DNA of 64,000 nt from an uncultured Gemmatimonadales bacterium (GTDB lineage: Bacteria > Gemmatimonadota > Gemmatimonadetes > Gemmatimonadales > GWC2-71-9): positions 640,001 through 704,000 of the forward strand of contig CAVVKJ010000010.1 in the NCBI GenBank assembly GCA_963748815.1, given 5' to 3'. Position 1 is the first letter of the stretch; each line of letters starts with the position of its first letter. This document shows, in pieces, positions 952 through 3,324 of the stretch. Made by a program: the position numbers and the translations under genes. The notes below the pieces were generated by a model. The model was not told the DNA's origin, made no database searches, and saw only the letters and a list, made by a program, of their open reading frames with translations.

Positions 952-1293
952 ATGAGCTATTCCCAGCCGGACATGATCCGCGTCAGAGCGGCGATCGAAC
1001 GGGGACTGAAGGTGGAGTTCTGGTGGACCGGGCTTCCTGGCGAACGAGGAGCGAAAGTGGTCAAGGTCGATGAGCATGGCATGCGGTGGACGCTAGACAT
1101 AGAGGCTACGCACTGGGTCACTCAGAAGATTGCGGCAGGGCTGCTAGGAGTGAGTGTCGTCACAATCAACAAATGGGTCCGTGAGGGAGTATTCCCGAAC
1201 AAGAAGATCAGGCGTGGGGTGTCCGTGATTCCGATTCGAGAGGTGGAGAAACTCGCCAATTCGCGTGGCCTCTTCTTGCGAAGCAAACAATAG
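952..1293 (+). CDS. DNA-binding protein with C-terminal excisionase/MerR-type HTH
   Basis: VTQKIAAGLLGVSVVTINKWVREGVFP matches the HTH_17/MerR-like pattern; promoter directly upstream. Confidence 0.75.
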   Translation: MSYSQPDMIRVRAAIERGLKVEFWWTGLPGERGAKVVKVDEHGMRWTLDIEATHWVTQKIAAGLLGVSVVTINKWVREGVFPNKKIRRGVSVIPIREVEKLANSRGLFLRSKQ

Positions 1294-1590: not shown

Positions 1591-1812
1591 ATGCCTTCCA
1601 ATATGGATTCCATCGCCGTCCCTGACAAGGCCCAAGGGGCTCTCCTCTCAGTTCGGGACGCTGCTTCCTATCTGAAGATGTCCGAGGGATGGCTCTCACA
1701 GAGCGACATCCCCTTTGTTCGGCTTGGTCGCAGTCGGCGTTACCGTCTGGTCGACCTCGATTCGCACATCGAGCAAAATCTTTCCCACCGACCAATACGG
1801 GGGCCCCGATGA
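1591..1812 (+). CDS. Excisionase-like HTH_17 protein
   Basis: LLSVRDAASYLKMS...IPFVRLGRSRRYRLVDLD; ATGA overlap with the integrase. Confidence 0.8.
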   Translation: MPSNMDSIAVPDKAQGALLSVRDAASYLKMSEGWLSQSDIPFVRLGRSRRYRLVDLDSHIEQNLSHRPIRGPR

Positions 1813-2915
1813 GCAGCATCTATGTGCGCGGCAAGACCTGGTACGTCGCTGTCCCTACACGATCTGGGAAGTGGACGAAGTGGTCGACGGGCAGCCGCGA
1901 CAAGGCGATGGCGCAGCGGATGGCCCGGATGATTGACGACTTCGGCCCGAAGGGACAACGCGCCTGGGTCTTCTTGGATGCCGTATCCACCGGCCAACTG
2001 CCAGTGGCAGCGTTGTATGACGCGTACTCGGCCCGCCAGCTCGACCAGCTGAAGGAGGAGCTGACCGATGTTGACCTGGAGCCATACGTGGACAAGTGGT
2101 TGAAGGCCATCGAGAGCAACGTGGCAGTCGACACGATCCAGCATTACGGGCTATATGCGCGCTCACTATTCCGAGAGGGTACCCGCTTTCCGAGGTCAGC
2201 GCTCCGACACGAGAGGATCGTCGAGTGGCTCGGATCACGAAAGGTGGGTCGCTCCACCAAGCGGAAGTACCACGCCGCGCTGAGCAGTTTCTGTGAACAC
2301 CTGAAGGGGATCGGTATCCTTCAGCGGAATCCGATGCGGGACGTGAAGGCACCGTCCCCTGCCCCGGCCCGAATGAGCTACTTGAACCAGACAGACGTGG
2401 AGCGATTGATCGCTGCCCAGGCGCATCCCTACAACGTCCTTTCTACGCTGGTCCATGGCACCGGTATGGAGCTTTCGGTGGCATTGGGACTCAAGAAACG
2501 GGACATCGACCCTGTCCGACGAGAGATCCGAGCCAAGGGCACTAAGACCAAGTATCGGGACCGGCACGCGACTGTCGTCGATTGGGCCTGGCCGACCATT
2601 GAGCGTCATGCCGCCTTGCTAACTCCCAATGCGCCGCTCTTTCCAGGGATCAATCGCTGGACAGCCAGCGACAAGCACCGTGAGGCGTGCCTCGCTCTTG
2701 GGCTGGAGAATTATCAGCTCAAGGACTCCAGGCACACCTACGCCGTGAGGGCCATCCGTGGAGGCGCATCCTTTGAGTTTGTGGCTCGGCAATTGGGCCA
2801 TGCGGACACGACCATGGCGGTGAAGGTGTATGGACGATTCACCCCAACGGACAGTGAAAGGACCGATTGGGAGGAGAACGCAAGAGCCCAAGATGCCGCC
2901 AGAGCGCAGGCGTAA
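1809..2915 (+). CDS. Tyrosine recombinase/integrase (368 aa), atypical catalytic motifs
   Basis: N-terminal arm-binding-like region (IYVRGKTWYV), NPMRDV, KDSRHTYA, VARQLGHADTTMAVKVY; box I reads TGMELSV rather than TGxRxSE. Confidence 0.92.
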   Translation: MSSIYVRGKTWYVAVPTRSGKWTKWSTGSRDKAMAQRMARMIDDFGPKGQRAWVFLDAVSTGQLPVAALYDAYSARQLDQLKEELTDVDLEPYVDKWLKAIESNVAVDTIQHYGLYARSLFREGTRFPRSALRHERIVEWLGSRKVGRSTKRKYHAALSSFCEHLKGIGILQRNPMRDVKAPSPAPARMSYLNQTDVERLIAAQAHPYNVLSTLVHGTGMELSVALGLKKRDIDPVRREIRAKGTKTKYRDRHATVVDWAWPTIERHAALLTPNAPLFPGINRWTASDKHREACLALGLENYQLKDSRHTYAVRAIRGGASFEFVARQLGHADTTMAVKVYGRFTPTDSERTDWEENARAQDAARAQA

Positions 2916-2954: not shown

Positions 2955-3033
2955 AAAAGTCCGTGGAAAAAGTCCGGTAATTGCCCGGCAAAAGTCCGTC
3001 TAGCGATTTTGAAAAGTCCGGTGAAAAAGTCCG
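2955..3033 (+). repeat. Five direct copies of AAAAGTCCG, probable integrase arm-type sites
   Basis: Copies start at 2955, 2968, 2990, 3012, 3025. Confidence 0.85.
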
Positions 3034-3154: not shown

Positions 3155-3190
3155 ATCTCGTAACTCTTTGGCAATCATGAACCTACACGA

Positions 3191-3264
3191 TAGCAGGGGC
3201 GGGACTCGAACCCGCGACCCCGGCATTATGAGTGCCGTGCTCTAACCACCTGAGCTACCCTGCC
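3191..3264 (-). tRNA. tRNA-Met (CAT), elongator type; CCA not encoded
   Basis: GGCAGGGTAGCTCAG...CACTCATAATG...GGTTCGAGTCCCGCCCCTGCTA cloverleaf; paired first base pair. Confidence 0.93.
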
Positions 3265-3295
3265 AACAACAACAACTTGGGACTGAGGACTGAGC

Positions 3296-3324
3296 GTACG
3301 GGCACGCCGCGGCGTGCCCCGTAC
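3296..3324. repeat. REP-like palindrome
   Basis: GTACGGGCACGCC-GC-GGCGTGCCCCGTAC near-perfect inverted repeat. Confidence 0.55.

Follow-up and report, generated by a model that had tools for sequence, protein, structure and literature searches.

IntDOT, an integrase of the Bacteroidota, is the precedent for an enzyme of this kind that works without the first catalytic arginine (Arg I, in box I) of the canonical R-K-H-R-H/W-Y set. It is an active arm-domain integrase, and the missing residue is functionally replaced by a downstream arginine (PMC8138268, citing Kim et al. 2010). Within the IntCTnDOT subgroup the substitute may sit at either of two places. The published Int_CTnDOT profile (supplement file 2 of PMC8138268) is enriched in arginine two residues before the catalytic lysine (K-2; about 0.27, at node 280 against node 282 for the lysine) and not four residues after it (K+4; about 0.08). 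The part played by Arg I is documented for Cre: Arg173 contacts the scissile phosphate, histidine and lysine being the substitutions reported as active in its place, and Glu176, at position +3 from Arg173, positions both Arg I and the lysine loop (PMC2943603). It follows that a working family deprived of Arg I must supply its function from elsewhere. According to Gibb et al., no more than 91% of tyrosine recombinases have Arg I, and those without it may be dead or may use another geometry, a question that they did not decide (PMC2943603, 2010). Other exceptions have been mentioned. Serine at Arg I is remarked upon in passing for two integrases in the accessible text of PMC12884075, which names no substitute; GinC, which belongs to a three-integrase system, is described as lacking the first arginine (PMC5385486); and the box I arginine of IntDes, from Desulfovibrio, is perturbed (PMC8138268). 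Relocation of Arg I (IntDOT), serine in its place and the question raised by Arg I-less enzymes are already known.

The window considered here, the whole stretch of 64,000 nucleotides that was analysed, comes from an uncultured Gemmatimonadales bacterium and carries close to its start an integrase of the lambda type. PF00589 recognizes the protein with 33.1 bits against a cut-off of 27.1, and it has the fold of the superfamily. Its AlphaFold model (pLDDT 92.5) matches lambda Int (1z1b) over all three domains, with Z 19.6, rmsd 8.8 and 317 aligned residues of model positions 1–356; XerA and Tn1549 Int are further fold matches. The arm-binding fold is found at the N-terminus, as strands 4–7, 10–16 and 22–26 followed by a helix at 32–45, and the alignment with full-length lambda Int runs from residue 1. 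With lambda Int and the arm-type integrases of phages and integrative and conjugative elements (ICEs) the locus shares this three-domain fold, a coupled xis gene, arm-like repeats and an att core within a tRNA gene. Lambda Int is only 16% identical, however, and has the canonical Arg I, the +3 acid of the R-x-x-E motif and His II, all three of which are missing here: their positions are occupied by Glu221, Val224 and Lys305, respectively. No NCBIfam family is above its cut-off for this integrase, and PHROGs offers generic integrase families only.

The first-pass annotation of this DNA had proposed that box I carries a glutamate instead of the arginine in an otherwise full-length frame, and that box II reads KDSR with Arg308, His331 and Tyr341 kept. 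Both readings hold when the codons are inspected (Table 1). The register of box I could be questioned, since an arginine might have aligned at a neighbouring position, as the same annotation had allowed. This is not what we find. Ungapped HMMER alignments place Glu221 on the catalytic arginine of XerA (5HXY) and of Brujita Int (5VFZ), and the flanking residues G219, L228 and D232 retain canonical spacing, which also rules out that Glu221 is the ordinary +3 acid displaced by a register shift.

Table 1. Features of the integrase locus, in window coordinates.
Feature	Position	Strand	Remarks
N6-adenine methyltransferase cargo gene, 5′ part	1–156	−	At the window edge
HTH-containing ORF, probable regulator	952–1293	+	Has homologues in 4 of the 10 further complete elements
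Xis-like HTH_17 protein	1591–1812	+	4-base overlap of its stop with the int start; putative excisionase
Integrase, 368 aa	1809–2915	+	Uninterrupted ORF; arm-binding-like N-domain (about 1–45), core-binding domain, catalytic domain (about 188–346)
Glu221 (GAG), at the Arg I position	2469–2471	+	Codon read directly; alignment
Lys246, catalytic lysine, beta2-beta3 hairpin	2544–2546	+	121/121 close-set rows; aligned with the canonical outgroup lysine
Arg250 (K+4), proposed Arg I substitute	2556–2558	+	Probable role, from covariation
Arg252	2562–2564	+	Codon read directly
Box II, K305-D-S-R308	2721–2732	+	Lysine at the His II position; Arg II kept
Lys305; Arg308	2721–2723; 2730–2732	+	Codons read directly; Arg308 in 121/121 close-set rows
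His331 (His III) to Tyr341 (nucleophile)	2799–2831	+	Codons 2799–2801 and 2829–2831; each 121/121
Five exact 9-bp direct repeats	2955–3033	+	0.16 expected; probable arm-type binding sites
tRNA, CAU anticodon	3189–3265	−	ARAGORN: Met (elongator Met or Ile2); reconstituted by the insertion
att core, int end	3190–3234	−	45 bp from the tRNA 3′ end, anticodon loop included

No recombinase other than this integrase is encoded by the 6.4-kb element, whose insertion at a tRNA-Met(CAU) gene is precise and has left 45 bp perfectly duplicated. The second copy of the att core lies 6,364 bp upstream, beyond the window (G000:C10:636826-636870). Between the repeats we find a Rep_1 rolling-circle initiator and an EcoRI-like nuclease (both upstream of the window), an adenine methyltransferase, xis, int and small ORFs. 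The G+C content of the element is 56%, against 69% for the contig, and in all five same-genus loci examined the site is empty, both flanks being joined through a single tRNA. The coupling of int to xis, the repeat array and the adjacent tRNA, all pointed out in the first-pass annotation, are indeed there. No copy of the arm-like repeats, exact or with one mismatch, lies inside the far end of the element. Read contigs from four sequencing runs, none of them from the source sample, include none that convincingly spans the att junction; one of these runs contains a close relative of the element.

Is the acidic residue an accident of this particular gene? An alignment of close homologues was the obvious check. 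Our close set comprised the query and the best 120 of 191 matches (45–94% identity): Arg I is replaced by glutamate in 116 and by aspartate in 5 of its 121 rows, so that the prospect of homologues all carrying arginine vanishes. Tyr341, Arg308, His331 and Lys246 are each invariant in this set. A second set, made of the best 150 representatives of a profile search over 1.84 billion proteins, gave 143 acidic rows, the rest being four gapped fragments, two sequences with glycine and a single record that is frameshifted and garbled. Another 44 rows came from a third search, 42 of them acidic and two unrelated canonical recombinases. Altogether, glutamate or aspartate occupies the Arg I position in 306 of 315 rows (the nine others being those just listed), over a range of 31–94% identity, which rules out a sequencing error or a private mutation. 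An acid is not among the common residues of the +3 column in the family, and Arg II is present in 262 of 263 rows. The two glycine rows (P0177 and P0246) have neither of the hairpin arginines discussed below.

The family belongs essentially to the Gemmatimonadota, with 21 of the 23 genome loci of named relatives; of the other two, one is a distant canonical integrase and one a short fragment binned as betaproteobacterial. Across the phylum the family profile matches 41 of 401 genomes at an E-value threshold of 1e-20; this count includes the source genome, one or more canonical relatives and the unpublished genome G157, on which no other result here depends. The protein is conserved although its synonymous sites approach saturation. 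In 11 unsaturated pairs of 18, dN/dS is roughly estimated at 0.16–0.39, the other seven pairs being saturated. The catalytic residues are conserved while their codons vary synonymously: Arg250 is encoded by all six arginine codons across 18 of 19 genes. Frameshifted copies occur as well (L020, L023).

Ten further complete elements were found, alike in architecture and different in cargo. Among the ten that share the polarity of the window's element (itself included), perfect duplications are 42–47 bp long in nine and 32 bp in one, and the nine longer ones end at the anticodon loop or shortly beyond it. The eleventh complete element, L008, is of inverted polarity and has a 42-bp duplication. 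A second tyrosine recombinase is absent from all eleven. Pfam found no serine recombinase among complete-element ORFs of at least 170 aa, a scan that covered 91 of 112 such frames, the remainder being int-frame, antisense or window-element ORFs. One of the eleven elements contains an IS-type transposase, and in another (L023) the family gene is frameshifted.

Looking beyond complete elements, we considered 72 distinct family loci, 13 of which had too little flanking DNA. Beside int in the 59 scored loci there is a full tRNA in 43 cases and a partial one in 6 (49 of 59 together), and no match in 10; the tRNAs are of the Met, Leu, Asn and Cys types. One of the ten loci without a match is a circular phage genome, MW202627.1, where inspection by eye places after an Asp-type member of the family a single 3′ half of tRNA-Leu(CAA). 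This half-tRNA starts at the anticodon loop and has repeats on both sides, which is the form expected of attP; within the 34.9 of 41.7 kb examined, no integrase is annotated besides the Asp-type member. Repeats on both sides were seen at L105 and L026. A Rep gene placed behind a half-tRNA, as a circle would have it, gave no convincing match in 14 loci. The tRNA insertions and the attP-like site of the phage are signs of ongoing site-specific mobility. We infer that a small, Rep_1-bearing element with defence cargo enters the anticodon loop of tRNA genes by means of an active integrase.

Several details of these relatives deserve mention. At a number of loci (L002:11306-11535, L003, L122, L007, L013, L021, L118, L132) a full tRNA-Met next to int has behind it either another full tRNA-Met or an isolated 5′ half, as though the element brought along a tRNA copy of its own; the element of the window, unlike these, has just one tRNA there. 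L008:2860-11040 is integrated opposite to the tRNA polarity, with int at the distal repeat. At L005:6522-9168 and L110:6174-8944, two family integrases converge around a single att region, which points to tandem insertion in both polarities. A Rep_1 initiator is found just inside attL in 6 of the 11 elements, and L008 has a small terminase instead. Most of the cargo is concerned with defence: restriction-modification systems of EcoRI-like, MmeI-like, XhoI and BglII types, an OLD-type ATPase with a UvrD helicase, and HamA with a helicase (L001, L002, L009, L010, L012, L117).

Which residue, then, might stand in for Arg I? The first-pass annotation had named Lys305 or the loop as the source of a basic residue. 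As a canonical outgroup (outgroup A) we took 121 long-loop integrases of the Gemmatimonadota obtained from the phylum search, all of which have Arg I, and aligned 36 sampled outgroup rows jointly with 46 sampled family rows. Arg250 is the only column of the catalytic domain that is basic in at least 80% of the family (45/46) and absent from the outgroup (0/36). Arg188, Arg241, Lys246, Arg252 and Arg283 are common to both groups, and loop positions 243 and 248 are variable in the close set. The loop thus keeps its place as the candidate donor, narrowed down to Arg250. The covariation extends to the whole family: among the 306 acid rows, 283 have an arginine at K+4, 23 have it at K-2, and none lacks both. 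Enzymes that keep Arg I seldom have a K+4 arginine (1 of 121 in outgroup A; 0 of 56 BPP-1-like sequences), and a K-2 arginine accompanies Arg I in 3 of 121 outgroup rows. Short-loop enzymes of the Xer or integron type that have Arg I nevertheless often carry lysine or arginine at the place equivalent to K+4 (five rows), and, because Arg I-keeping enzymes have basic residues there, a hairpin arginine can be a plain backbone contact.

The K-2 rows repay a closer look. All 23 have aspartate at Arg I. The 14 acid rows that lack an arginine at column 250 all have the K-2 arginine, which is found in none of the 283 main-type rows. A quick tree places the K-2 rows in two distinct clades, each lying within K+4 rows. 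These sub-lineages comprise P0078, P0101, P0402, L012 and L115 on the one hand, and P0172, P0218 and relatives among P0401–P0434 on the other; the larger has lost the otherwise conserved Arg252, and L012 stands for a complete element with a 45-bp duplication.

A parallel case comes from outside the family. In a lineage of Pseudomonas-type phage integrases (L027–L104, L191, which is phage KT1, PQ316073.1, and L244–L252), Arg I has become serine, and 65 of 66 rows, one of them a duplicate, have an arginine at K+4. Its Arg I-bearing, BPP-1-like relatives have serine or glycine at K+4 without exception (56/56). In a tree built without the trait columns the serine lineage groups with phiCTX Int as its sister (100/99), an enzyme that combines Arg I with a serine at K+4. 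A single clade uniting the serine lineage with the acid family is rejected (AU p = 0.0013), in a trait-free tree whose deep branches are poorly resolved and where the acid family falls on one side of a branch in 38% of bootstrap trees. Judging from these alignments and trees, the serine lineage is an independent gain of the K+4 arginine. Its members (KT1 and IMG/VR prophages among them) resemble the acid family in having lost Arg I and gained the K+4 arginine, and differ from it by their separate origin, by the +3 glutamate, which they keep, by an asparagine at His II and by the beta insertion of BPP-1; this strand, inserted between beta2 and beta3 in IntBPP-1, is present in BPP-1-like rows and not in family rows. 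We also considered the integrases of phages phiCTX, phiNP, LLS, Hali and a Halomonas phage as studied examples of the K+4 arginine, and set them aside, all of them having a canonical Arg I. Since the rows are kin, they count as some four independent events and not as hundreds.

A mechanism can be outlined from these observations. The integrase would bind the arm repeats and core sites around the anticodon loop of the tRNA. Tyr341 would attack the phosphate, and Lys246, Arg308 and His331 would each play their customary part. Arg250 would reach the scissile phosphate from the beta2-beta3 hairpin, stabilizing the transition state as Arg I does elsewhere, and Glu221 would hold the relocated arginine and its loop, replacing the organizing role of the lost +3 acid. 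In short, the arginine–acid pair would have been rebuilt with its arginine on the hairpin. That the integrase is active by some route seems to us very likely from its sequence and setting. Arg250, four residues after the catalytic lysine, is the probable substitute for Arg I, and the scheme taken as a whole – an active lambda-type enzyme using Arg250 in place of Arg I, with Glu221 holding it – is likely.

As a way of working, this would be that of IntDOT. The acid family nevertheless differs by glutamate or aspartate at Arg I, by the loss of the +3 acid, by K+4 as the main place of the substitute, and by its phylum and its targets. The K-2 arginine of IntCTnDOT corresponds to Gly244 in the present integrase, and only the 23 K-2 rows of the 306 have it. 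IntDes differs in that its arginine is described as shifted, its His II is a tyrosine and it is restricted to Desulfovibrio (PMC8138268), whereas here we have Lys305 and relatives in the Gemmatimonadota. On the features tested, the enzyme is best placed outside the IntCTnDOT, IntBPP-1 and IntDes groups.

An active integrase might, of course, obtain the function of Arg I from some other source: Arg252, Arg188, Arg283, Arg152 of the core-binding domain, Lys305, the neighbouring protomer, or Lys246 and Arg308 alone in a more permissive site. No row of the close set departs from Arg188, Arg252 or Arg283, which would suit such a role, and Cre tolerates histidine or lysine at Arg I (PMC2943603). Yet these three arginines are shared with the canonical outgroup and are thus not compensatory gains; Arg252 is moreover missing from most of the K-2 sub-lineage. 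Arg152 is replaced in 42 of 261 acid rows, by asparagine in 19 of them. As for Lys305, column 305 is arginine in 104, histidine in 104 and lysine in 48 of the 262 acid rows where it is filled, and because the acid coexists there with the canonical histidine, this first proposal of the earlier annotation has to be abandoned. None of the donors listed explains the repeated gains at K+4 or K-2, and we hold the whole group of alternatives to be unlikely. The acid itself raises another question. It is an acid, not a small residue, that has been retained over the identity range of the family, and other Arg I-less lineages use serine and keep the +3 glutamate; this could mean that the acid takes a direct chemical part, through a divalent metal or as a general acid, with the hairpin arginine secondary. 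However, because the +3 acid was lost at the same time, retention of an acid is explained structurally; glutamate gives way to aspartate in every K-2 row, as expected if the acid tracks the position of the arginine; and the serine lineage gained the same arginine with no acid at Arg I. A chemical role of the invariant acid (with a divalent metal or as a general acid, for example) next to the relocated arginine appears improbable, and one where the arginine is only secondary a shade more so. Were it true, the family would use a catalytic strategy that the accessible literature describes neither for recombinases nor for type IB topoisomerases.

There is also the second branch of the choice with which the first-pass annotation had ended, between a subfamily with a rewired active site and an inactivated enzyme. 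A dead protein with a recombinase fold could be kept as a DNA-binding regulator or scaffold, in the manner of MrpR and SroF of SPbeta, the element being moved by a recombinase of the host or of a helper. Gibb et al. name 'inactive' as one reading of Arg I-less enzymes (PMC2943603), and the host genome does have two other recombinases. MrpR, YopR and SroF, repressors of SPbeta-like phages, have the recombinase fold without Arg I and are weaker fold matches of our model (Z 12–14). MrpR retains the tyrosine and the lysine and showed no recombination (PMC10516654); for this reason, invariance of the tyrosine proves nothing by itself. These repressors have lost most residues of the site, however, MrpR keeping three of seven, whereas the acid family also keeps Arg II and His III (R308 and H331 here) and sits at att sites (PMC10516654 for the repressors). 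An arm-like domain, a coupled xis gene, arm-like repeats and att sites in several kinds of tRNA speak against a mere regulator. The family gene is the sole recombinase gene in all eleven complete elements, an attP-like site lies alongside it in a phage, and the targets are anticodon loops of tRNAs and not dif sites. Inactivation is accordingly the part of the earlier alternative that recedes, and we consider it very improbable; the rewired site is favoured by an acid that is family-wide and by a hairpin arginine that always goes with it.

With reference to novelty, a survey of the readable text of the open-access literature retrieved no acidic replacement of Arg I, no acid-for-arginine family in the Gemmatimonadota and no K+4 donor. 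The acid family makes the old question of Arg I-less enzymes directly testable: hundreds of its sequences show a natural charge reversal, the substitute can be named, a second natural place for it exists at K-2, and a separate lineage has undergone the same change. Should our reading be true, there are no fewer than three sites from which the catalytic arginine may be supplied (the helix of box I, K-2 and K+4), and annotation pipelines that drop Arg I-less integrases as defective miss working elements. The comparison suggests that integrases which look broken may be working enzymes. Few genetic tools are known for the phylum Gemmatimonadota, and the acid family offers tRNA-targeting integration tools for it.

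Some features of the neighbourhood remain to be recorded. The interval from the HTH gene to xis holds a very acidic short ORF, with a run of aspartate and glutamate residues (1337–1480). Upstream of the HTH gene, a sigma-70-like promoter is predicted from a strong match (895–922). A short repeat at 3286–3300 recurs at about a dozen other sites of the genome (G000), next to tRNA genes and elsewhere, and is possibly REP-like. A 20-bp extra copy of the tRNA end near attL is a host repeat, found at empty sites also. Downstream of the tRNA the host indeed carries short copies of the tRNA 3′ end, accompanied by hairpins (at L001:6709-6870, which lies before the window begins), and their number varies between genomes of the same genus, with copies present at empty sites too.
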